From the NCBI GenBank assembly GCA_040285745.1, contig JAUFOR010000008.1, forward strand, positions 1,984,001 through 2,048,000: DNA of 64,000 nucleotides, read 5' to 3'. A program made the translations under genes and the position numbers. The notes under the pieces are model-generated. The model ran no database searches, had not been told where the DNA came from, and worked only from the letters and a program-made list of their open reading frames with translations. Positions 2,855-59,541 of the stretch are shown here, piece after piece. The stretch is from Barthelona sp. PCE (taxonomy: Eukaryota). How positions within the stretch are numbered: position 1 is the first letter of the stretch; every line of letters begins with the position of its first letter.

Positions 2855-4378
2855 TTAGCTACAAAGAGTCAAAATAGGTTTCTTTGTGGCACGTACATCA
2901 TCAGCACGTTTAATGGGGGCATGCATAGGAGCTTTATGTAATTCTTCAGGATTATTCTTAATCGTGTCGATAATCTCCTTCATTGCATCAACATATGTGT
3001 CAAGGGCTGCCTTTGTTTCAGTCTCAGTGGGTTCAGTTAACATAGCACCTGAGACGACTAACGGGAAATAGACAGTGGGGGGATGGAAACCCTTGTCAAT
3101 GAGAGTTTTTGCAACGTCCATAGTTGTAACACCTGTTCCTTCAAGCCATTTGTCAGAAAAGACGCATTCATGCATACAGTCTTCTTCAGGGAGTGCGGGT
3201 GTAATACCTATCTCTTCAAGTTTGCGCATAAGATAATTGGCGTTAAGAACTGCATCACCGGATACCAGACGCATACCTTCACCACCCATAGCCATAACGT
3301 AGGCGAGGGAACGAAGAATAACACCAAACTGACCAACAAATTGCTTACAACGACCACATGATATATCATTAAGGCCTTCGTTAATAGTGAAGGAACCATC
3401 AGGTCCCTTGACAACGTCTGTGATTGGTGCATGTTGTGCCAACCTGTGAGAGAAGACGACAGGACCAGAACCAGAACCACCACCGCCGTGAGGTGCAGCG
3501 AAGGTCTTATGAAGGTTGATATGCATAGCATCAGCACCAAGGTCGCTTACCTTGACTCTTCCGAGAAGAGCGTTGAGGTTAGCACCATCCATATACATGT
3601 AAGCACCACCATCATGAATAATATCAGCAATCTCCTTACAATTAGTCTCGAAAAGACCGAGTGTTGATGGATTGGTAAGCATGAAACCGGCAACAGTATC
3701 GTCCATCTTAGCGCGCAGATCGTCAAGATCAACACGGCCATCAGGAAGACCCTTTACCACCTTTACCACATATCCAACTTGAGCAGCAGATGCAGGGTTT
3801 GTTCCGTGTGCAGAATCGGGTACGAGCATGATTCTACGCTTCTTATCTTCACCGCTCATCTTATGAGCTTGTTTGATAGCCATGAGACCAACGTGTTCAC
3901 CGTGAGCTCCTGCTGCAGGAGCCATGGTGATAGAGTTCATACCAGTGATATCAATGAGCATTTCTCCCAGGGTATGAATTGCTTCAAGAGCACCTTGAAC
4001 GGTTTGTACAGGTTGAAGGGGATGAACTTCAGCGAAACCGGGCATGCGAGCAACCTTTTCACAATTGACAGGATTGTACTTCATTGTGCATGATCCTAAT
4101 GGATAAAGAGCAGAGTCAAGCGCGTAGTTCAAACGGCTAAGACGATGGTAGTGCCTTTTAACTCGTGGTTCAGGAATTGAAGGTAAGCCCACTTCTCCCC
4201 TGTTTAGATTGCCCAGCATATCTGTGTCGAACTGAGGAAATTCAGGAATACGAACAGCACCCAGACCAGGTTGATCAATCTCAAAAGTTAAGTTTTCTTC
4301 GATATTGAGACCTTTGGTGCGGTTAGAAAGGGCACGTGTCACGTTGGCAGTGATATTAAACGCAGACTTTGGTTGCAT
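2855..4378 (-). CDS. gcvPB: Glycine cleavage system P protein subunit 2 (glycine dehydrogenase beta chain)
   Basis: YPLGSCTMKYNP, AGAHGE, PDSAHGTNPASA, DGANLNA, PLP-lysine motif HINLHKTF..PHGGGG, EPTETE; 507 aa, the size of the split P2 subunit. Confidence 0.95.
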   Translation of the reverse strand: MQPKSAFNITANVTRALSNRTKGLNIEENLTFEIDQPGLGAVRIPEFPQFDTDMLGNLNRGEVGLPSIPEPRVKRHYHRLSRLNYALDSALYPLGSCTMKYNPVNCEKVARMPGFAEVHPLQPVQTVQGALEAIHTLGEMLIDITGMNSITMAPAAGAHGEHVGLMAIKQAHKMSGEDKKRRIMLVPDSAHGTNPASAAQVGYVVKVVKGLPDGRVDLDDLRAKMDDTVAGFMLTNPSTLGLFETNCKEIADIIHDGGAYMYMDGANLNALLGRVKVSDLGADAMHINLHKTFAAPHGGGGSGSGPVVFSHRLAQHAPITDVVKGPDGSFTINEGLNDISCGRCKQFVGQFGVILRSLAYVMAMGGEGMRLVSGDAVLNANYLMRKLEEIGITPALPEEDCMHECVFSDKWLEGTGVTTMDVAKTLIDKGFHPPTVYFPLVVSGAMLTEPTETETKAALDTYVDAMKEIIDTIKNNPEELHKAPMHAPIKRADDVRATKKPILTLCS

Positions 4379-8391: not shown

Positions 8392-11300
8392 ATGAACGTT
8401 GCAGATGCAACCGCAGAGTATGATTTTCTCGGCAACCAACTGGTATCAACATCGTGTCTCGGGGCTGCAAAAAAGTATTTCAACTTTACATACTTTAACT
8501 CCATTCAGAGCGCTTGTTACAACACATTGCTCTACTGCAACGACAACATGGTCATATCCAGTCCTACTGCAACAGGAAAGACCACTCTATTCGAACTTGC
8601 CATTATCAAGAACATGGATCAACAGAAAAGTAATAAGACTATTTATATTAGTCCATTAAAGGCTCTGTGCTATGAAGTCTACCAGAACTGGAAACAGAAG
8701 TTCAATGGCCTCAATGTTATGCTTTTAACAAGTGACAAGGATAAAATAACGCAGACTGATGTTCAACAGAGTGATATTTTCATAACAACACCTGAGAAAC
8801 TTGATAGCCTCACTCGTCACGAAACTAGCTATAGCGCCTTTAAACTTAGTGACATGAAATTGGGTCTTGTCTGCATTGATGAGATTCACATTCTCGGTGA
8901 TAGAAGAGGAGCAATTTTGGAGATACTAGTAACCCGTATGAAGATGAGAAGGGTCCAGCCGCGGTTCATCGCAGTCTCTGCAACCATCCCAAATATACAA
9001 GACGTTGGTTTATGGTTGAACTGCAGTTCCAGCAATATCCTTCACTTTGGAAAGGAGCATCGTCCAGTCAAGCTTACCCACGTAGTGCACTCTGCACAGA
9101 TGCGTGACGAGGACAACATATTCCAGTTCAATAACTTCTTGAGATATCGTGTTCCAAACATAGTTGAGAAGTACAGCAACGGAAGCCCTACACTCATATT
9201 TTGCTCCGTGCGGAAGGAGACTACAAGCCTAGCCAATTTTCTGATGGAAAAATTGTCTCGTAACGGTCTTGATCGTCCTACACTTAACAGGATCGCTTCC
9301 GATATTAATGATGTTTCACTAGCAGACCTTGTTCGCAGTGGAATAGCATTCCATCATGGCGGGCTGAACTATCAGACGCGATCCGTTATCGAAGATGCGT
9401 TCCGTCAGGGGAAGATTAAGGTACTGTGCGCTACGTCAACTCTTGCTGTTGGGATAAATATGCCAGCACATCTCGTTATTATCAAGGGCACGTGGAAGTA
9501 CGACTCTCATAGCGGGCAGTACGTTCCACTCAGTTATTTGGAAATAGAGCAGATGTGTGGTCGTGCTGGTCGCCCTCAATATGACCAAAGTGCCACAGCC
9601 GTTATTATGACGAGCGATAGACTTGCCCCACAATACGAGCGAATGAGTCTCGGCCGTCAACCCATTGAGAGTCACTTGCTTGATCAGAGCATTAGTACTT
9701 TCATAAATGCAGAGATTGATAATAACTACATTAAGCATGTCCAGGATGCGCTTGACTGGATCAGCTCATCATACCTTTACGTTCGCATGCAAACGAACCC
9801 TTACTCCCTACATACTATTAACAAACCTGAAAAGAAGGTGGATTTGATCGAGGTTGTACATGAGGCTCTGAGCAAACTTGAGAAGATCGACGCAATTGTT
9901 ATTGATGATGGCACTATCCTCCCAACCAAGCTCAGCAACATTATTTCGCGTCATAAGCTTGATGTCGAGTATGTATCAGTGGCAATCCAAAAGTTTGAAA
10001 AGGAGATTGTCCAAACTACTCTCAACGTACCTGCAGCGATGAAGAGCAAGGTGTCACTTGATGCTGTGTACAGCGCCTTACAATTGTACACTGAGTCTCA
10101 GGAGTTTGAACTTCGTTTCAACTTACGTCGCCGTCAGAAGAGTATCTTGAATAAGCTCAATGGAGGCAGAAACAAGCGTAAGAAGGACCGAAACGAGAGT
10201 ACCATCCGTCACCCATATCCAGGCCCCGTTACAACAACATCGACCAAAATTGCAGTACTGTTACAGGCAATGTTTGACGAGAAGCTGCGCTATGTCGACC
10301 ACGACCTGAAGCAACAGGCCATTGCTCTACAGAGATTGCTTTCCGGCTACTACATTGGTCTTTGTAAGACTGTCATATATATGTTCCAGAAGCGTCGCGA
10401 TTTCACCAACATGAATCACATACTCGCATTGATTCGAGCCACACAGTCTATTAATGGGCGTATTTGGTTTGATGAACACGCAGTGTTACTACAGTTTGAT
10501 GGTATTGGTTCACAAAAGGCTAGAACTCTGAGTCAGAGTGGTATCTCAACAATTCAACAATTGAGAGACCATGTAACTCGCTCTTTAATTCAAAAAATCA
10601 GTGGATTCGGGCCCAGTATTGTCAATAAGCTCGGTGTGCAGTTGTCAAGCGTACCACAGTTGACAGTTGACGTTAGTGCTAGCAGCTCATGTGATATTAT
10701 CATCAAGGTCACAAAGGAGAGGCACGTGCCTCCCCAATTACACCGTTCTAACATTCAGAAGTACACCTATAATGGATGTGTCGTTGCCTCCATTGGTGCA
10801 CACGTCATCACTCTTCAACACATTCTTCTAACACCACGAGGGCAGTCATTCACTGTTAGTGTTCCGTTAGCTGCAGCCGTTAAGCATGCTACCATGGACG
10901 ACAAGTGGGACAGTGACACTGTTGTTGTTGATATTGGTGTATACATACTTGAGGTTCTGGGTATTGATGTACATATTCAACATATTCAAACCATTGAGGG
11001 GGTTGAACACGTGTCCAGATCAACTATTCCACGTCCTGTGCTCATAGAGTCCGACTCAGATTTTGAGCTCTCTCCAACTATTCCCAATCTCAAGATTAAT
11101 GCTTCCGGTTTAACGTTCAGCACAGATAGTGAGGATGAGACGAGCGTTCATGTTGAACCTCCAAAACAAATTCATGAGGAAAAAAATGTCAAAAACGTTC
11201 CTTCCAAGAAGAAAAAAGTTAAGCAGTACAAGCTTACTGATTTACCCATCGTTAAGAAGGGCAGTCGAGACTACCCTATCCACCGTGGCCCCGGCGAAAC

Positions 11301-15336: not shown

Positions 15337-16609
15337 ATGCATTTATCGTTCTATGTTGTGTTTATAACGCTTGCATGCGTGGTTACAGGAACAATTGTAA
15401 GGGGAATTGAGCCAAAACACGAAGACTTGTATAGTCAAGATGAATTCCACTGTTTGGATGGATCGGGCTCGTTTTCAAGAAGTGTCATTAACAACGGTTA
15501 CTGCTCATGTAATGATTGTTCAGATGAACCAGGAACAAGTGCAGGAATACAGTTTTTCTGTGAGGAATATCCACTAGGTGGAAGATATATACATTCTATG
15601 TTTGTAGATGATGGCATCTGTGATTGTTGCGATGGAAGCGATGAAGCATTAGGTGTATGCCCGAACACATGTAACGTTGAATTGAGAACCCGATTAAGTG
15701 ACATTCAGGAAAGAATTTCAGATGTTAGAAAGGGATTAATTGCCAAGGAAGATTTGCTGCTGCGAGCACAAGCAATTAAAACAACCAAAGAAAAGGAGTT
15801 ACTGGAGAAGCAAACTCGTAAAGCAATTGCTCAAAAAGCTGTAGAGGCTTTAAATTCTGAAAAAGAAGAGCTTGAGGCAGAAAGAAAACTCGTAACTGAA
15901 GAAGAAGAAGGAAAAGAAGAAGATATTCAACGTGTTCAAGATAGTATGGAATCAACAATGAAAATTCGCAGTGGATTTGGTCGTCATCGGGTGCGTGGAA
16001 AGCGCTCCTTCCTTTCTAAGCTTCTATTTTGGAAAAAACAACCAGATTTACGTATATTTCATTATTCTTTTATATTTGATAAACTAACTTTTAGAAATTG
16101 ATTCAGTTGAAAAGTACGTGAGCAACGAGGAGAGTGAACTGGAAAGAATCAAAAATGAAATTGCTGAGATTACAACTTTCCTCAACATTGATTTTGGTGT
16201 TGAAAATGTATTTATGCCTCTTTATGACACAGAAATTTCTACAACAACACAATACAAATACGTAATTAATCCTTTCCGTGAAGCGTTTCAGAAAGAAAAA
16301 CATAACAACCATGGCTCAACATCCTTGGGAAAGTTTTCTGCTGATCAAAGTGATGCAACCACTTGGTCATTCATAAATGGACAGAAGTGCTGGGGTGGGC
16401 CGGATCGTAGCCTTCGGGTTAGTCTCATATGTGGTACTCATACAGAAATAGTAATGGCTGATGAAGAAAGTATGTGCGTATATGTCATGGACGTAAAAAC
16501 ACCAGCAGTATGCTCAACTGAACAGTTAAGTGAGTTAGAAGCGCAACTTGGATTTTACAGAGAAGCATATGAAAAAAACTTGAACTATGACTACGCTGAA
16601 GATTTGTAA
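15337..16609 (+). CDS. Glucosidase II beta subunit (PRKCSH-like), two exons 15337-16051 and 16095-16609
   Basis: Signal peptide, Cys-rich N-domain (DGICDCCDGSDE), MRH domain (GQKCWGGPDRS..V.LICG), ER-retention-like end AEDL; removing the intron joins the two ORFs in frame (PDLQIDSVEKYVSNE). Confidence 0.9.
16052..16094 (+). other. Spliceosomal intron, 43 nt
   Basis: GTATAT...ACTAAC-TTTT-AG; removal restores the reading frame. Confidence 0.88.
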
Positions 16610-24907: not shown

Positions 24908-24984
24908 TTCAAAGAAAAATACAGAAAATTTGTGTGAAAGAGGTGATAAAAAACAAAGTAGCATACCATTTATTGATTAATGAA

Positions 24985-26250
24985 CTAAATTAGGCAAGCG
25001 TAATAAATGTGCCATTTCCAGTGTTCCACGGCACAGACTAGCTGATTAATGATTCGTTTAGACATTTTTTTGTTAGGAACTCCATTTGTATTACGTTCAA
25101 CAAACAAATTTCTAGTTTCTTCGTTAGTTTTGATCTTATGCAAGACCTTTTTGACAGATGAAATAGTCATATCACTCACTCCATAATCGCTCCACTTATA
25201 ACTGTGTTTCCAGTGAGCTTTTGATTCTTCAACACTATATTCACTCAGATCAAGGTAGTATTGGTCATAGTCCATCAGGTGAACTCCCTTTTTAGGAGTG
25301 TATCCGATGTGAAAGACTCGGATACCAGGATTGTTACCGCTGTAAAGAGGTTCTTCATCCATTGGAGAAATTGCTGGTGTCATCCAAATACCATGAGTAT
25401 CACCTACAATGAATGTATCAGTATGAAGATGACCATAGATCTGACCAATAATGTTTTTGTTATTCATATTTTGCATCAAAATCTTAGCTCCCTCAGCCCA
25501 CATCATAGGCATGTCATTATTGCCCATCACGCCCGGGGGGTTGTGCCCGAGGACGAGGATCTTGAAGGGGCAGTCCTCGACGAGAGACTGGAACCACTTC
25601 CACTGCCCCAGCACATCCTTGTTAACATGAGGAAGGTTGGTCGAAGAATACAGGTTGGTATTGATAACGATAACACGGAGCCCAATCTTGTAAAAGTCGC
25701 GGTAGTAGAAGGCACCCTTTGCGAAAGAATCGCGTTCGTTGGGATGGAAAAAGTCCTGCCAATATTTGTGGGCAACACGACTGTACAACCATGTCGATTT
25801 GGCGTTGTGGTGGTAGAGTGGTACCATATCGTGATTGCCAAGAGACAGCATGACATCGCGGCCGGCGAGGTGCTTGCGCATGACACTGCCCATCTTGTCG
25901 ATAGACTCTTCGAGCTGATCGCGTGTGAACTTGAGATCCTCCTTCTTTTCAGTGGCCTTTTGAGGGAGGATGTCGCCAAGAAAAGCGTAGAAATTGACAT
26001 CGGGGAGCGAAGCGGCGAACTCAACGGCACTGTCAATCAATTGGATTGGTGCGTCACAATGCGTGTCTCCGAAGTATGCAGCGCTACCAGTTCCCTTGAT
26101 GCACAAGGACTTTGGGTCAGAGCCAGCGTGGTACTTGTCGGCGAGATGAACGTCTGTAAAAACAGCGAAACTGCCGATTTTCTCTGCGTGGCATGCAGAA
26201 ACGAGTGCCACGAGCAAAATGAGCCCGCTACAAAGTATGTTGAACTTCAT
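24985..26250 (-). CDS. Secreted acid sphingomyelinase-like/Ppn1-family metallophosphoesterase, copy A
   Basis: Signal peptide MKFNILCSGLILLVALVSACHA; motifs TDVH, LGD, GNHD, GHNPPG, GHLHTD, NNPG.R. Confidence 0.88.
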   Translation of the reverse strand: MKFNILCSGLILLVALVSACHAEKIGSFAVFTDVHLADKYHAGSDPKSLCIKGTGSAAYFGDTHCDAPIQLIDSAVEFAASLPDVNFYAFLGDILPQKATEKKEDLKFTRDQLEESIDKMGSVMRKHLAGRDVMLSLGNHDMVPLYHHNAKSTWLYSRVAHKYWQDFFHPNERDSFAKGAFYYRDFYKIGLRVIVINTNLYSSTNLPHVNKDVLGQWKWFQSLVEDCPFKILVLGHNPPGVMGNNDMPMMWAEGAKILMQNMNNKNIIGQIYGHLHTDTFIVGDTHGIWMTPAISPMDEEPLYSGNNPGIRVFHIGYTPKKGVHLMDYDQYYLDLSEYSVEESKAHWKHSYKWSDYGVSDMTISSVKKVLHKIKTNEETRNLFVERNTNGVPNKKMSKRIINQLVCAVEHWKWHIYYACLI

Positions 26251-26340
26251 AACAACAACCAAATAATGAAAGTGAAAAGAAAACTTTTTACAATACAAAT
26301 TACACAATTCCGTGATAAAGCACGGTTATTAAGATTAATT

Positions 26341-26356
26341 GGTGTTTAAGAACACC
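26341..26356 (-). terminator. Histone-type 3' stem-loop, copy A
   Basis: GGTGTT-CTTA-AACACC on the minus strand, ~50 nt after the H3 stop and preceded by an A-rich run. Confidence 0.7.
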
Positions 26357-26407
26357 TGTTTTTTTGATGTTTTTTTTAGTTATATATATGTTTGGATTTG
26401 AAGTTGA

Positions 26408-26843
26408 TTACTCGCGCTCCTCCTCAGCACCGACAAGGAAGGGATCATTGCGGATACGGAGAGCAAGACGCATGTCATCAAGGAAAAGGGTGACACGCTT
26501 GGCGTGGACAGCACAGAAGAGGGACTGCTCGAAGAGGGAGGTGAGGTAAGACTCAGCAGACTCTTGAAGGGCGAGAAGAGCGGTCTTCTGGAAACGGATA
26601 CCAGAACCGTGATCGGAAGCGATACGACGGACGAGCTTCTGGAAAGGAAGCTTACGGAGAAGGAGCTTCTCAGAGGCCTGGAAATCACGGATCTCACGGA
26701 GAGCAGCCATGCCCGGGGGGGATACGCTGCTGACGCTTGTAACCACCAGCGGAAGGGTTCTTGGTGGACTTCTTGGCGGAAGTATCGGTCATGGGGTGCT
26801 TGACGGCGGAGGTCTTGTTAGGTAAAAGCTTGGTTCTAACCAT
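26408..26843 (-). pseudogene. Divergent histone H3 variant, copy A, apparent +1 frameshift (possibly a sequencing error)
   Basis: Identical to 30585-31019 except for G7 (26715-26721) versus C6 in copy B, which splits the ORF at the IPPG codons. Confidence 0.75.
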
Positions 26844-27650
26844 TGTAATGTTTTGACAAGGATATGTACTCTGTAGTAAAAAAATAAATTGAGTAGCTAC
26901 CCCCGGTTGGGCTTGAGGGCTGCAACCGAGATTTTTATTTACACGCAAACCAAGGCACGTGTTTGGTGCTATATCCAGGTATCAGTTGTGTATAAGTGGT
27001 GTAAAATGCGTTAACGGTGAGAAATCTTTTTGTCAATGTTGCGTTTTGTCTTTGTACATATTTTAGTTCACCGAGCAGGGATCAATCGTGTGCGTGCATG
27101 AGCTGCTGCGGATGCAGGATGCTCAAATACGGAAAATGTGCATTTGAGTTTTCTTCCTTCTTTGCCTTTTTGTGTATCGGGGCTTGGGTGTTGTTTTGCG
27201 GGCATGGGGACTGGTTGCTGCCGCTGGGGCTTCAGGCTCATCGTCGTCGTGTTTTTGTGACGTGATCCATGTTGGGCTGTTTTTTGCTGTGCGTTCTGCA
27301 TGCTTGTGCTCTTGGACGCGATCCGTGGTTTGTTGCTTGTGGTGTTTTTGTGGATTTTTTACAACATTTTGCTTAAGCAAAATGTTGAAATTTGTATACT
27401 TTTACCCATAAATAATAAGGGTGATTGTATTCAAGTGCAATATGCTGCTAAAACCATTGGAATTCAGAATAATTGTAAGAAATTGCAAGAACCATCATCC
27501 CCTAATAAAAAAATTTTTTTTATCTTTAAAACTCATTATGGAGCAACTTAATTATATACATGTCCATATAGATAATCTAATTCACTTTATTAGTTTGTTA
27601 AACTATTTATCCACCTTTTCATTTTTTTGTTTCGTTAAGGGGCTATTATC

Positions 27651-28869
27651 ATGTCAAGAACAGTAATTATCGACAATGGAAGTGGTGTATGTTTGCTATT
27701 TTAGTAATTTGGGCTGTTCTAACATTCAGTATATTAAATGTGGTTTCCCCAGTGATCGTTTCCCGCATTCTACATTCCCTAACGTGGTAGGCCGACCCAT
27801 AGCTCGCTCAGGTGCTAATCTGAAGGGTCTTGAAGAAGTTCCAGACCTACTGCTGGGTGATCAAGTTGAACCTTATTTATCAGCACTTCAGCTCACCAGA
27901 CCGATCGATCATGGTATTATCACTCACCTTGATGACCAAAAACTCATCTGGGATTATGCATTCAACAAAAAACTTGTAGTTGACCCTTCAGAGACAAAGG
28001 TTCTGTTAACAGAAGCTCCTTTAAACCCAGTAAGGAACAGAGAGAACATGTTGGAGGTATTATTTGAGAATTTTGATGTTCCTGCCGCGCAAGTATATGC
28101 ACAAGCTGTGCTTACTCTTTACGCTAGTGGTCAAGAGACAGGGTGTGTCGTTGACTCAGGTGACGGTGTCACTCACGTTGTCCCAATCTCCAATGGTATG
28201 ATCTTCCATCATCAAGTGAAAAGATTGAACGTTGCAGGTAGAGATATCACTAGAAATCTTCTTAAATTGATGTGTGATCGTGGTTTCTACTTAAATGAAG
28301 GTTCTGATCTGGAACTAGTCAGAAAAATCAAGGAAGAAGCTTGTTACATTGCCTATGATTTAGATTATGAGAAGAAGCTAAACCGTGAGACCACTGCAAT
28401 CAGTGAAGATTACCGTCTGCCTGATGGTTCATTTTTAAATCTCAGTCATGAGCGATTTTTGGCTGCAGAGTGTCTGTTCCAACCTCATCTGGTTGGATTG
28501 AATGAACTACCGGGTGTTGATATGATGACGTTCAACGCAATTAACGAATGTCCTATTACTGCACGAAAAGGACTATATGAAAACATTTTCGTATCAGGTG
28601 GTACATCAATGTATCCAGGTTTCCCTACTCGTCTTGAACGATCAATTAAGAGCATTTATAAGCGTATTGTAAGAAAGGGAGGTAATGAAGGACGTGTTAA
28701 GATTAAGGTTAAGGCTCCAGCAAACCGTAAAAACTCTGTATTTATTGGTGGTGCAATTCTTGCACAAGTTGCCGAGGCATCAGCAGATTTTTGGATTCAG
28801 AAGAGTGAGTATGAAGAATGTGGAGCAAATTTTGTTGCGAAGAATCGTTGTGGACAGCTTGCTTTTTAA
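27651..28869 (+). CDS. ARP2: Actin-related protein 2, two exons 27651-27686 and 27730-28869
   Basis: Spliced N-terminus MSRTVIIDNGSG|YIKCGF; LLTEAPLNP..NRE, QAVLTLYA.G..TG.VVDSGDGVTH, GGTSMYPGFPTRLE are Arp2-type. Confidence 0.9.
27687..27729 (+). other. Spliceosomal intron, 43 nt
   Basis: GTATGT...TCTAAC-ATTC-AG; removal restores the actin-family DNGSG-x-IK motif. Confidence 0.92.
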
Positions 28870-29879: not shown

Positions 29880-30584
29880 GTGAGTATATTTTAAGTGTAC
29901 TTAACAAAATGAATAGTTGCAAAAAACAAACCGAAAGAGGAATGATATAAGAAACCAAGTAACAACATATTTAACACATTTATTTTGTTGGAAATTCATT
30001 GACTTCCATGCAAAGATACTTTTCTTCATAATAATGACTAAAATTTCGATTGTATGAGTATACCACCGAAAAAATCCACAAAAACACCACAAGCAACAAA
30101 CCACGGATCGCGTCCAAGAGCACAAGCATGCAGAACGCACAGCAAAAAACAGCCCAACATGGATCACGTCACAAAAACACGACGACGATGAGCCTGAAGC
30201 CCCAGCGGCAGCAACCAGTCCCCATGCCCGCAAAACAACACCCAAGCCCCGATACACAAAAAGGCAAAGAAGGAAGAAAACTCAAATGCACATTTTCCGT
30301 ATTTGAGCATCCTGCATCCGCAGCAGCTCATGCACGCACACGATTGATCCCTGCTCGGTGAACTAAAATATGTACAAAGACAAAACGCAACATTGACAAA
30401 AAGATTTCTCACCGTTAACGCATTTTACACCACTTATACACAACTGATACCTGGATATAGCACCAAACACGTGCCTTGGTTTGCGTGTAAATAAAAATCT
30501 CGGTTGCAGCCCTCAGCCCAACCGGGGGTAGCTACTCAATTTATTTTTTTACTACAGAGTACATATCCTTGTCAAAACATTACA

Positions 30585-31019
30585 ATGGTTAGAACCAAGC
30601 TTTTACCTAACAAGACCTCCGCCGTCAAGCACCCCATGACCGATACTTCCGCCAAGAAGTCCACCAAGAACCCTTCCGCTGGTGGTTACAAGCGTCAGCA
30701 GCGTATCCCCCCGGGCATGGCTGCTCTCCGTGAGATCCGTGATTTCCAGGCCTCTGAGAAGCTCCTTCTCCGTAAGCTTCCTTTCCAGAAGCTCGTCCGT
30801 CGTATCGCTTCCGATCACGGTTCTGGTATCCGTTTCCAGAAGACCGCTCTTCTCGCCCTTCAAGAGTCTGCTGAGTCTTACCTCACCTCCCTCTTCGAGC
30901 AGTCCCTCTTCTGTGCTGTCCACGCCAAGCGTGTCACCCTTTTCCTTGATGACATGCGTCTTGCTCTCCGTATCCGCAATGATCCCTTCCTTGTCGGTGC
31001 TGAGGAGGAGCGCGAGTAA
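30585..31019 (+). CDS. Divergent histone H3 variant, copy B (intact, 144 aa)
   Basis: [53 protein letters not shown]...[17 protein letters not shown]. Confidence 0.93.
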   Translation: MVRTKLLPNKTSAVKHPMTDTSAKKSTKNPSAGGYKRQQRIPPGMAALREIRDFQASEKLLLRKLPFQKLVRRIASDHGSGIRFQKTALLALQESAESYLTSLFEQSLFCAVHAKRVTLFLDDMRLALRIRNDPFLVGAEEERE

Positions 31020-31070
31020 TCAACTTCAAATCCAAACATATATATAACTAAAAAAAAACATCAAAAAACA

Positions 31071-31086
31071 GGTGTTCTTAAACACC
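31071..31086 (+). terminator. Histone-type 3' stem-loop, copy B
   Basis: AAAAAACA-GGTGTT-CTTA-AACACC-AA: perfect 6-bp stem beginning GG with a 4-nt loop, 51 nt after the H3 stop. Confidence 0.72.
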
Positions 31087-31176
31087 AATTAATCTTAATA
31101 ACCGTGCTTTATCACGGAATTGTGTAATTTGTATTGTAAAAAGTTTTCTTTTCACTTTCATTATTTGGTTGTTGTT

Positions 31177-32442
31177 ATGAAGTTCAACATACTTTGTAGC
31201 GGGCTCATTTTGCTCGTGGCACTCGTTTCTGCATGCCACGCAGAGAAAATCGGCAGTTTCGCTGTTTTTACAGACGTTCATCTCGCCGACAAGTACCACG
31301 CTGGCTCTGACCCAAAGTCCTTGTGCATCAAGGGAACTGGTAGCGCTGCATACTTCGGAGACACGCATTGTGACGCACCAATCCAATTGATTGACAGTGC
31401 CGTTGAGTTCGCCGCTTCGCTCCCCGATGTCAATTTCTACGCTTTTCTTGGCGACATCCTCCCTCAAAAGGCCACTGAAAAGAAGGAGGATCTCAAGTTC
31501 ACACGCGATCAGCTCGAAGAGTCTATCGACAAGATGGGCAGTGTCATGCGCAAGCACCTCGCCGGCCGCGATGTCATGCTGTCTCTTGGCAATCACGATA
31601 TGGTACCACTCTACCACCACAACGCCAAATCGACATGGTTGTACAGTCGTGTTGCCCACAAATATTGGCAGGACTTTTTCCATCCCAACGAACGCGATTC
31701 TTTCGCAAAGGGTGCCTTCTACTACCGCGACTTTTACAAGATTGGGCTCCGTGTTATCGTTATCAATACCAACCTGTATTCTTCGACCAACCTTCCTCAT
31801 GTTAACAAGGATGTGCTGGGGCAGTGGAAGTGGTTCCAGTCTCTCGTCGAGGACTGCCCCTTCAAGATCCTCGTCCTCGGGCACAACCCCCCGGGCGTGA
31901 TGGGCAATAATGACATTCCGGTCATGTGGGCTGAGGGAGCTAAGATTTTGATGCAAAACATGAATAACAAAAACATTATCGGGCAAGTTTATGGTCATCT
32001 TCATACTGATACATTCATTGTAGGTGATACTCATGGTATTTGGATGACACCTTCAATTTCACCAAAGGATCATGAACCCTTCTATGACGGCAACAATCCA
32101 ACTGTTCGTATTTACCATATTGGGTATACCCCTAAAAAGGGAGTACACATGATGGATTACGATCAGTATTACCTTGATCTCACAAAGTACGGTCCAAATG
32201 ATAAGATAGCTGATTGGAAGCTACAATACAAATGGAGTGATTATGGAGTGAGTGACATGACCATTGAATCCGCTAAAAAGGTCTTGCACAAGATTAAAAC
32301 TGATCAAACAACCAAAGACCTATTTGTTGAGCGCAATTCGGTCGGTTGTCCTCGCTCAAAAATAACCCCTCGCATTGTTAAACAGCTGGTTTGTGCTGTT
32401 GAGAATTGGGCATGGCACAAGTATTACGCCTGTCTTTTATAG
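31177..32442 (+). CDS. Secreted acid sphingomyelinase-like/Ppn1-family metallophosphoesterase, copy B
   Basis: Same motifs as copy A; first ~246 aa identical, C-terminal ~175 aa diverged. Confidence 0.88.
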   Translation: MKFNILCSGLILLVALVSACHAEKIGSFAVFTDVHLADKYHAGSDPKSLCIKGTGSAAYFGDTHCDAPIQLIDSAVEFAASLPDVNFYAFLGDILPQKATEKKEDLKFTRDQLEESIDKMGSVMRKHLAGRDVMLSLGNHDMVPLYHHNAKSTWLYSRVAHKYWQDFFHPNERDSFAKGAFYYRDFYKIGLRVIVINTNLYSSTNLPHVNKDVLGQWKWFQSLVEDCPFKILVLGHNPPGVMGNNDIPVMWAEGAKILMQNMNNKNIIGQVYGHLHTDTFIVGDTHGIWMTPSISPKDHEPFYDGNNPTVRIYHIGYTPKKGVHMMDYDQYYLDLTKYGPNDKIADWKLQYKWSDYGVSDMTIESAKKVLHKIKTDQTTKDLFVERNSVGCPRSKITPRIVKQLVCAVENWAWHKYYACLL

Positions 32443-32472
32443 TAAAGTCTTATTTGTTTACTATTGATATAT

Positions 32473-43522: not shown

Positions 43523-44066
43523 TTAGAAGCGGACGAAGGTAGTCTTCTTCAGGATGTTGGTGGCGACGGTATCACATACGCGACGGCCTTCAGAAGAGAG
43601 GACACGGCCCTTGGTGGATTGCTCGATCAAACCAGCCTTCTCGAAGTTCTGAATAATACGGCGAATGACACCGCGAGCGGCAAGAGCACCGTGGTTACGG
43701 GCGTGGCCGTTACGAGCCTTGGCACCGAAGTATTTAGCGAAACCGCCAAGACCAATACCAGGCTGAATGTAGACACGACGGAGAATGGCAGCTAAACGTT
43801 AGAATGTTACAATGATGGTTGTTCACGAATGAATAAGTGTAAAGAGAATATTTTCACTCAATGCTCCCTCCCCTTTAATCTTTCGGAACCAATCGCATAC
43901 CAGCACGCTTGAAGAACCAATCGGGATCCTGAGGACCAAGCTCTCTACCGGGAGCGCTCTTAATGTAGGTAATTTCGGTGGGCAACTCGAGGATGTTGGC
44001 GTTCTTGAGATGGAGACCACATGCTTGAATGAACTGGTCGGCGGTGACTTGCTTGAGACCGGGCAT
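43523..44066 (-). CDS. RPS19: 40S ribosomal protein S19e, two exons 44066-43901 and 43791-43523
   Basis: MPGLKQV.AD.FI..RELGPQDPDWFFKRA|AAILRRVYI.PG.G.G...GVIRRIIQ.FEKAGLI..GR.LS.EG; 435 nt spliced. Confidence 0.93.
43792..43900 (-). other. Spliceosomal intron, 109 nt, predicted long hairpin
   Basis: GTATGC...TCTAAC-GTTT-AG; removal joins the RPS19 exons in frame. Confidence 0.9.
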
Positions 44067-57617: not shown

Positions 57618-58330
57618 ATGGGCAAAAAGAATGAATTCGTTAACAATATAAGATGAAGTTTAGAGGAAATATTAACGATGAAGAGGAATAACGATAAAAT
57701 TTAACATAACAATGTTGATTTAAACCTAATAATGACTGAAATTTGTAATGAAATTACTATAAGAAACCCTAAAGATGAATTACATTTTAGTGCTTTAGAC
57801 TTCTTTAAAGAACATATTGACACGCTTGAGTCTCGCAAGGATGGGCAATTTTCGTTGCCTCAATCCGCCGTTTCCCCATTTGGCAAGTATTCAAGCAAAC
57901 AAAATCAAATAGGCGTGATTTATGTAGATTCGAGTGATTTCAGTACAATATCTGATGATCTCAACTTTTTTGTAACCCAGGAAGCGAACATCAAGTAATT
58001 TGTTTGATATTATAAAATCTGGATCCGATGATTATATGCAACATTCTTTACTGGTTGAAAGTGATGATGAAAGTGGGTTTAAAGAATTTGATGGGGTATC
58101 ATGGTTCACTTTCGTGTTTGGAGGATCCAATTTTACTATTACTTGAACAATTGAATAGTATATTATCTTCATGTGTTTTGACAATAATTGCACACCATAT
58201 TCGATTCGAGTATATGTTGAAAATCGTATATTATCTTCATGTGTTTTGACAATAATTGCACACCATATTCGATTCGAGTATATGTTGAAAATCCGTTTGA
58301 CCTCTATCATTACCATTTGCAATAATAAAA
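57618..58330 (+). pseudogene. Decayed gene of unknown family
   Basis: ATG 57618 is in frame with ORF 57732-57998 but interrupted by TGA 57654 and TAA 57702; coding-like text continues through further stops and a frameshifting duplication; 3' end uncertain. Confidence 0.5.
58158..58293. repeat. Perfect 68-bp tandem duplication (2 copies)
   Basis: gtatattatc...gttgaaaatc at 58158-58225 and 58226-58293. Confidence 0.95.
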
Positions 58331-58834: not shown

Positions 58835-59541
58835 TTAATCTTCCTCATCATCAGGAAGAGCAAAGTCGTCTTCGCCCCAACCATTGTTAAGTTCGGCAAG
58901 AGTCTCTTCATCAAGTTCTTCATCAACACGATGAGCAACTTCATCAGTGATTTCCAAATCATCAGTCTCAGTGACCTTCCTCATCAAGACTTCAAAAGGC
59001 TTCTCGTACTGGAAACCAGTCTTGGCAGAAATGGGAATGTACTTCATGCTGTAACGACGATGGAAAGAGATATCACGATTCTTAACACGACGATCAGTGA
59101 CCTCAGTCTTGTTACCAACGAGAACCATATCCAAATCATCACCAACAATACGGGTGATGTTGTCGTACCAATGTCCCACACGTTGATAAGTTGCTTTTGA
59201 AGTTAAATCAAACATAATAATGGCACAATCAGCCTTGAGGTAGTATCCGTCTCTCAGACCACCGAACTTCTCTTGACCGGCAGTATCCCAGACATCAAAG
59301 ATAATCTTACCGTAATTTGTTGTGAAATCTAAAGGAGAAATTGTTACACCGGTTGTAGCTAAATGTTAGCTCTAAAATTTGAAACCTAAAGCCAAAGGCT
59401 CTAAAACATACGCAAATAACGTTTCTCAAAGTGACCAGTCTTATGGCGCTTAACTAGAGTAGTTTTACCAACACCACCATCGCCTACGAGAACAAGCTTG
59501 TATCTGCCGACACATTCTTCATCAGTACCTTCGTATGACAT
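58835..59541 (-). CDS. RAN: Ran GTPase, two exons 59541-59412 and 59358-58835
   Basis: [42 protein letters not shown]; acidic end ALPDDEED. Confidence 0.95.
59359..59411 (-). other. Spliceosomal intron, 53 nt
   Basis: GTATGT...GCTAAC-ATTT-AG; removal gives YLP-TTGV in frame. Confidence 0.92.

Follow-up and report, generated by a model that had tools for sequence, protein, structure and literature searches.

Few eukaryotic proteins are as conserved as histone H3. Protist H3s that diverge but keep their tail lysines are nevertheless already known, and in the part of PMC2939574 that treats them the long-branch H3s come from parasites and the H3s of free-living excavates are conserved. In the published passages cited here, the bulk H3 of Giardia is about 60% identical to human H3 in the histone fold (PMC9396995), the bulk histone genes are present as two identical copies with identical upstream DNA, the core histone genes are given as having no stem-loop (PMC1872034), and cryo-EM and MNase show a nucleosome of low stability that is loose at its DNA ends (PMC9396995, PMC8421212). 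A third H3, divergent and additional to the canonical and centromeric ones, is described in Giardia, where it is called H3B (PMC9396995), and in Carpediemonas (legend of a supplementary figure in 10.1101/2021.03.14.435266). For the naming of H3B and of trypanosome H3.V we refer to the relevant section of PMC3380720, and for histone gene organisation to that of PMC13525598. Histone hairpins are counted in 214 of 310 protist species, and SLBP-like proteins are reported from Monocercomonoides, in the portion of 10.64898/2026.10.14.759114 that deals with them. Here we describe a strongly altered H3 found in a 64-kb stretch of DNA, hereafter the window.

The duplicated H3 gene and its 3' hairpin

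The intronless open reading frame at 30585..31019 (+) (copy 1, P0001) encodes 144 residues and matches the Pfam Histone family (PF00125) with E=1.4e-28. The PDB entries closest to the protein are H3.1 and H3.3 (E=1.6e-35 for H3.3). An H3-type fold with an alpha-N helix, the mark of the H3 family, is present. The ESM Atlas model has a TM of 0.65 to H3 clusters. The AlphaFold model is of low confidence (pLDDT 59.5, pTM 0.27), and its Foldseek matches, to nucleosomal H3 chains at a TM of about 0.3, carry no weight here. For a pairwise map the reference was one canonical H3 from the protein-representative search, with numbering from the residue after Met. Identity to this canonical H3 is 65/134 overall, 11/34 in the tail and 40/69 (58%) in the histone fold. 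All eight of the residues that we take to form the H3-H3' four-helix bundle (C110, H113, A114, D123, L126, A127, I130 and R131) are identical to the canonical ones. By these matches, 30585-31019(+) encodes a genuine, strongly altered histone H3, as the first-pass annotation had proposed in calling an unusual H3 at this place. The annotation had also given the protein an extra C-terminus of 12 residues; an extension is present, and its length is 9 residues, the preceding three aligning to E133-R134-A135.

A second copy, absent from the first-pass annotation, lies at 26408..26843 (-). It equals copy 1 plus one C, since a run of C is 7 long in copy 2 (26715-26721) and 6 long in copy 1 (30707-30712). 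Copy 2 is frameshifted as assembled, and a truncated product of 100 residues is on record (P0002); the frameshift is probably a homopolymer assembly error. The gene is thus found as intronless, near-identical copies of the kind looked for in a bulk H3 (two copies, 0 substitutions, one 1-nt homopolymer indel), and no further H3 was found within the window. The copies lie in the arms of an inverted duplication that enclose Arp2 and a UAA-family transporter between them. The right arm (30069..32443, +) holds an upstream region, H3 and a phosphoesterase, and the left arm (24984..27360, -) is its counterpart. Across about 1.84 kb the two arms have no substitutions between them and are set apart by 4 single-base indels, 3 of which lie in homopolymer runs; the right arm is free of substitutions relative to the left up to 31916 and divergent past that point. 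The co-duplicated passenger gene (31177..32442, +) encodes an acid-sphingomyelinase-like metallophosphoesterase of secreted type. Its paralogue at 24985-26250 (-) is identical over residues 1-245 and matches at 131 of 176 residues (74%) thereafter, and in the passenger the arms differ at 24 of 47 four-fold sites past nt 741. An H3-containing tract that is still identical in an old duplication points to continuing gene conversion, by which the old H3 duplicate would be held identical. In the converted half of the passenger, third-position C is raised at four-fold sites (0.43 versus 0.08-0.22), in composition a signature of GC-biased gene conversion.

Upstream of H3, both copies have in common a stretch of 516 nt (30069..30584, +), presumably the promoter region; its GC content is 0.45, and that of 8 further intergenic stretches is 0.27-0.33. 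The 516 nt gave no match in Rfam or Pfam, and an unusual fold is absent from the upstream 185 nt (z=-0.53). An observation apart concerns the GC-rich (0.51) stretch common to both arms upstream of H3 (30058-30361 and 27068-27401), which holds a 77-residue ATG frame with no Pfam match as well as a frame that lacks an ATG and has an acidic patch with SP/TP-basic motifs after it. This stretch may be regulatory DNA, or a small gene that a homopolymer error obscures.

The codon use of the H3 gene is like that of RPS19, as the first-pass annotation had noted. On an RPS19 reference the CAI is 0.79 for H3 and 0.81 for RPS19, and lies between 0.27 and 0.48 for 33 other genes of the window. The 0.79 of H3 compares with a ceiling of 0.46 across 5000 recodings with background usage and with 0.55 for the top 140-codon stretch in the other genes. 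Within H3 the tail scores 0.69, the core 0.81 and the extension 0.90. Because the converted tract is GC-enriched, biased conversion was tested as the source of the codon bias. Purines occupy 1/83 four-fold sites in H3 and 3/77 in RPS19, in contrast to 30/109 in the equally converted half of the passenger (p=1.5e-7). GC-biased conversion was rejected as the sole cause on this difference, and the bias looks like translational selection. The RPS19-level bias across the rewritten tail and the extension implies sustained very high expression. With codon bias as the proxy we infer, in line with the first-pass annotation, that the gene is highly expressed, and its mRNA would be abundant.

A perfect hairpin with a 6-bp stem, a 4-nt loop and an A/C-rich 5' flank stands 51 nt past each H3 stop codon, at 31071..31086 (+) for copy 1 and, identical, at 26341..26356 (-) for copy 2. 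This histone-type stem-loop was likewise absent from the first-pass annotation. The top Rfam match of the region is Histone3 (RF00032), which covers 31066-31112 with the whole model at E=0.0074 and 23.1 bits, under the gathering score of 34. The 23.1-bit score is uncalibrated on true protist stem-loops, since the H3-encoding loci from viral contigs gave no Histone3 match in the 20 of 63 that were tested. The fold of the hairpin has a z of -4.36 and beats 200 of 200 shuffles. A histone-hairpin grammar, set post hoc, has four matches in the window, two of them the H3 hairpins, versus a null mean of 1.17; the expectation of the same post hoc grammar is about 0.001 per 100 nt after a given stop. 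The spacer from stop to hairpin contains no AATAAA. No hairpin of this type was found in the 58 H3 genes read from the 63 viral-collection loci, and metagenome scans with the 22-nt stem-loop stretch gave 0 matches. In being intronless and in the form and place of its hairpin, the gene is like metazoan-type replication-dependent histone genes (RF00032, SLBP pathway), and it is unlike them in the sub-threshold score. It also differs from Giardia, whose histone mRNAs are polyadenylated and without a stem-loop as far as the published descriptions cited go. The 3' end of the H3 mRNA would be handled via the putative stem-loop. If the lineage is near Giardia, a histone stem-loop here would help to date the loss of SLBP-type processing.

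Tail and core residues

In the pairwise map K4, K9, K14, K23 and K27 stand at their exact canonical positions. Five of the six canonical tail lysines thus keep their register, for which 200,000 shuffles of residues 1-28 give p=0.00044, and 3 of 22 non-lysine tail positions are identical to the canonical ones (R2, T3 and P16). The tail changes include K18T, S10T and S28N, and R8, S10, R26 and S28 of both ARKS motifs are all altered. The lysine register and the losses of K18, S28, K56 (to A) and K79 (to G), together with S10T, had been described in the first-pass annotation and all reappear in the map; the ARKS losses were absent from it. Its K36 equivalent, in GGYK, is present as residue 35 by a one-residue deletion, whereas its exact place is ambiguous because the alignments put the residue at different positions (29 in the pairwise alignment, about 26 in the multiple alignment).

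We take K14-x-P16 and the residues around K36 to be mark contexts, and K56 and K79 to be sites of acetylation and methylation, respectively. The tail contexts that survive would then be those of active marks, R2-T3-K4, K14-x-P16 and G33-G34-x-K36, and K56 acetylation and K79 methylation would be ruled out for this protein by K56A and K79G. Methylated K9 and K27 bind HP1-like proteins in an ARKS/T context, as set out in a passage of PMC2939574. With both motifs lost, K9 and K27 are likelier to be acetylated than to be read as methylated residues in the HP1 or Polycomb manner. Since the non-lysine survivors cluster at K4, K14 and K36 and the ARKS flanks are changed, the tail lysines are probably retained for acetylation and active methylation, and the marks predicted on this H3 are mainly of the active type. 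Across the species treated in the part of 10.1101/2021.11.30.470311 concerned, acetylation of K9, K14, K18, K23 and K27 is broadly conserved, and marks on K56 and K79 are sparser. A rewritten tail with a near-canonical lysine count is also found in trypanosomatid H3 and H3.V, as described in a section of PMC2939574; there is no sign of shared ancestry between these proteins and the present one. Where lysines stay and their flanks go, as here, selection for acetylation can be told apart from selection for methyl reading that depends on sequence.

The core has changed at the entry and exit DNA contacts (Y41I, R42P, T45M, R53D and K56A), at the dyad contact (K122D) and on the surface around K79 (E73R, F78H, K79G, T80S and D81G). 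Y41I, R42P, R53D and K122D were absent from the first-pass annotation. Of the residues that we take to be the inner DNA contacts (R40, R49, R63, R69, R72, R83, K115, R116 and T118), all are kept except for R69K, and F104 is retained as well. At R42P, R53D, E73R, D106Q, K122D and Q125R the residue of the query was found in 0 of 175 sampled cores (60 H3, 33 named cenH3 and 82 other cenH3-like). The net charge is +11, or +14 once the extension is removed, versus a median of +20 and a minimum of +13 for 127 other proteins whose N-terminus is of the H3 type; the minimum for the H3s of the viral collection is +12.

What would such a protein do to the nucleosome? An H3-H4 tetramer should still form because the four-helix-bundle residues are retained, and the inner DNA should still be gripped through the retained inner contacts. 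Passages of PMC9396995 assign the control of DNA-end flexibility to R42, R49 and R53 and a contribution to stability to Y41, and in the cited part of PMC11742582 K122 bonds the DNA backbone. With the entry, exit and dyad contacts lost and an acidic tail gained, loose DNA ends and low stability are expected. The Giardia nucleosome, whose H3 has milder changes, shows 125 bp of visible DNA and low stability in the account cited from PMC8421212. By analogy with this account and with that in PMC9396995, nucleosomes containing the present H3 would be loose-ended and unstable, and the altered nucleosome stability proposed in the first-pass annotation gains a basis in the DNA-contact substitutions. 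The alpha-N DNA contacts are altered in both proteins; according to the published descriptions, Giardia H3 carries R49K and R53K, whereas the present H3 retains R49 and has D in place of R53. Leishmania H3, whose nucleosomes are less stable in the passage on them in PMC9396995, also has Y41 replaced. The substitutions differ, however, in that Leishmania alters R63 and F104, both of which are kept here.

Bulk H3, side variant or centromeric H3

The homologue search gave 171 matches among 219 candidates, and the top full-length non-self matches, at about 53% identity, are generic H3s. A search of representatives gave 13,619 matches among 1.84 billion, of which the best 150 are all generic H3. 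No orthologue of this H3 was found among the 219 candidates or these best 150, and none of 355 pattern matches in metagenome scans is a relative. A published description of this protein was not found in the literature searched, supplements aside, which may bear on novelty; the main text of 10.1101/2023.05.03.539051 has 0 occurrences of 'histone'.

Our preferred reading, to which we give a probability of about 0.55, is that the protein is the main, replication-coupled-type H3 of a flagellate that is single-celled, fast-evolving and probably a metamonad. The identical twin copies, the histone-type stem-loop and the codon bias at the level of a ribosomal protein favour it together. So does the fold identity of 58%, which resembles the roughly 60% of the Giardia intestinalis canonical H3 (PDB 7D69), a protein that, compared through published descriptions, is also encoded by two intronless copies with identical upstream DNA. 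It helps that the host is broadly divergent, with BOP1 matches of 31-39% identity among the 120 listed and no near relative among them. Several results weaken the reading. The drastic core changes are those absent from the 175 cores, and Giardia H3B and the third Carpediemonas H3 sit beside canonical H3 and cenH3. The long-branch H3s of PMC2939574, in the part cited, belong to parasites, and the free-living excavates there have conserved H3s. The stem-loop is sub-threshold, its grammar is post hoc and the core histone genes of Giardia are described as hairpin-less; copy 2 is frameshifted as assembled. A stem-loop is in any case no proof of bulk status, since human variants such as H3.T are replication dependent in the relevant passage of PMC11742582. 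The first-pass annotation had proposed a variant and had itself named the case against this, that the protein is the main H3 of its lineage; on the evidence above that case has become slightly the likelier.

If this H3 is the main one, it would be a natural experiment on which of its residues a cell can do without. Dot1, Rtt109/Asf1, SUV39/HP1 and PRC2 would be predicted to be lost as well or rewired, and H4 and H2A to carry compensating changes. Tentatively, and at somewhat less than even odds, an H3 that has lost K56, K79, K122, R42, R53, S28 and the two ARKS motifs would package the entire genome of the flagellate. Loose DNA ends would then be a constant feature of its chromatin, which would do without K56ac-guided assembly, Dot1 methylation and the canonical reading of K9/K27 heterochromatin; selected tail lysines would be kept, as would control of histone mRNA through the stem-loop. 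Bulk status, if proven, would make the protein clearly more interesting.

The main alternative, which we consider a real possibility although a lesser one, is an abundant, lineage-specific, non-centromeric variant that exists beside a conventional H3, as do Giardia H3B, the third Carpediemonas H3 and trypanosome H3.V. At certain regions or stages of the life cycle it would form nucleosomes of low stability. The core substitutions found in none of the sampled H3 and cenH3 cores fit such a variant, and so does a net charge below the minimum among the proteins compared. Third H3 types are recurrent in fornicates, in the parts of PMC9396995 and 10.1101/2021.03.14.435266 that describe them, and by these descriptions the present H3, whose lineage is probably related to theirs, is like them in being divergent and neither canonical nor clearly cenH3. 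Lineage-specific variants were found by proteomics in all the species studied in the cited part of 10.1101/2021.11.30.470311. The stem-loop would be carried over by descent from a replication-dependent gene, and dosage need not explain the duplication, which also holds an unrelated gene. Against this alternative stand the RPS19-level codon bias over the rewritten tail and extension, and the combination of twin identical copies with a stem-loop. As a side variant the protein would be one more lineage-specific protist H3, unusually acidic and otherwise of a well-known class.

It is improbable that the protein is the centromeric H3 of the lineage, with an unusually H3-like tail and a short loop 1. 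This identity was examined because cenH3-like homologues from Skoliomonas hold several residues in common with the query. The proteins in question, from three Skoliomonas strains (P0030, P0275 and P0276) and listed as 'hypothetical', are cenH3-like and form one clade (100/96) within the cenH3 group. A46, L62, L119-F120 and M124-type residues of the query occur in some or all of them. T107 is replaced by S, a residue found there in 10 of 33 cenH3 and 1 of 60 H3. We take T107 to be the diagnostic cenH3 threonine; the passage in PMC4359364 prints 118, and T118 is retained here. An overall identity to H3 of about 50% and the extended C-terminus are further likenesses to cenH3/CENP-A. AU tests did not reject the cenH3 placement, either for grouping with the three Skoliomonas proteins (p=0.163) or for grouping with all 38 cenH3-like rows (p=0.311). 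A long loop 1 is not obligatory, as Dictyostelium cenH3 is described without one in a passage of PMC2995078. In the ESM Atlas the highest-ranking cluster bears the automatic name CSE4, yet it has 32,102 members and carries the generic Histone family only.

The diagnostic residues argue the other way. Criteria for cenH3, for which we also refer to a section of PMC8015243, include the absence of Q68 and F84 (as cited in PMC4359364, in the passage concerned). Both residues are retained in the query, whereas position 68 is Q in 0/33 named cenH3 and 60/60 H3, and position 84 is W in 33/33 named cenH3 and in 82/82 other cenH3-like matches. Loop 1 is unextended, with an F67-to-F84 spacing of 17, as in 63/66 canonical cores, in contrast to 18-25 in every scorable named cenH3 core (29/33). 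The H3 profile beats the cenH3 profile by 16.8 bits, a partly circular difference since the H3 training set was PFQ-filtered; the corresponding values are -20.6 to -26.3 for the three Skoliomonas proteins and at most +7.5 among the 82 cenH3-like matches. In a free tree of 69 rows and 97 columns (20 of 66 canonical H3s, 20 of 33 named cenH3, 15 of 82 unnamed ones, the 3 Skoliomonas proteins, 10 divergent H3s and the query), the query is placed outside the cenH3 clade (99/93), and its branch is very long (1.06). The tail can be aligned to that of H3, with the lysine register given above, and the codon bias and stem-loop would be unexpected in a scarce protein. The first-pass annotation had argued against CenH3 from a canonical loop 1 and retained PFQ/RFQ. 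These observations are reproduced, and its conclusion has the diagnostic residues behind it, although the two AU tests leave a cenH3 grouping unrejected.

Still less probable is a decaying pseudogene, to which the frameshift of copy 2 as assembled would fit, or a virus-derived histone, of which the divergent histones of giant viruses in the cited passage of PMC9396995 would be precedents: copy 1 is intact with host-optimal codons and surrounded by intron-bearing host genes, no close relative was found in viral contigs among 14 matches examined, the 63 H3-like loci of the viral collection match at no more than 53% full length, and none of the 58 loci read has more than 1 of 12 derived residues. 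As an observation in its own right, these 63 loci (L001-L063), many of them labelled as giant-virus bins, encode H3-like proteins with mostly canonical key residues, and some of the loci may be host contamination.

Genes and introns around the locus

The host is a eukaryote with densely packed genes and few introns, and the window contains the ciliary genes B9 and DZIP1. A stand-alone P2 subunit of the glycine-cleavage system (2855-4378, -; Pfam GcvP2_C) represents a split form of the P protein. A 68-nt tandem duplication (58154-58289, 99% identical) lies where no clear gene is recognised. Five sites strictly match a 3' splice site with a fused branch point, at 43792-43900 (-), 27687-27729 (+), 59359-59411 (-), 10634-10758 (+) and 16094 (+), and four of the five have a matching upstream donor. 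The RPS19 and Arp2 frames open once introns of 109 and 43 nt, respectively, are removed. It is from the shape of the introns that a metamonad host is judged probable. The candidate intron at 10634-10758, of 125 nt, lies inside a Mer3-like frame that is already open. A gene that by eye is glucosidase II beta-like (15337-16609, +) is divided between two frames; a motif like a 3' splice site ends at 16094, and the split is due to an intron or to an assembly error.
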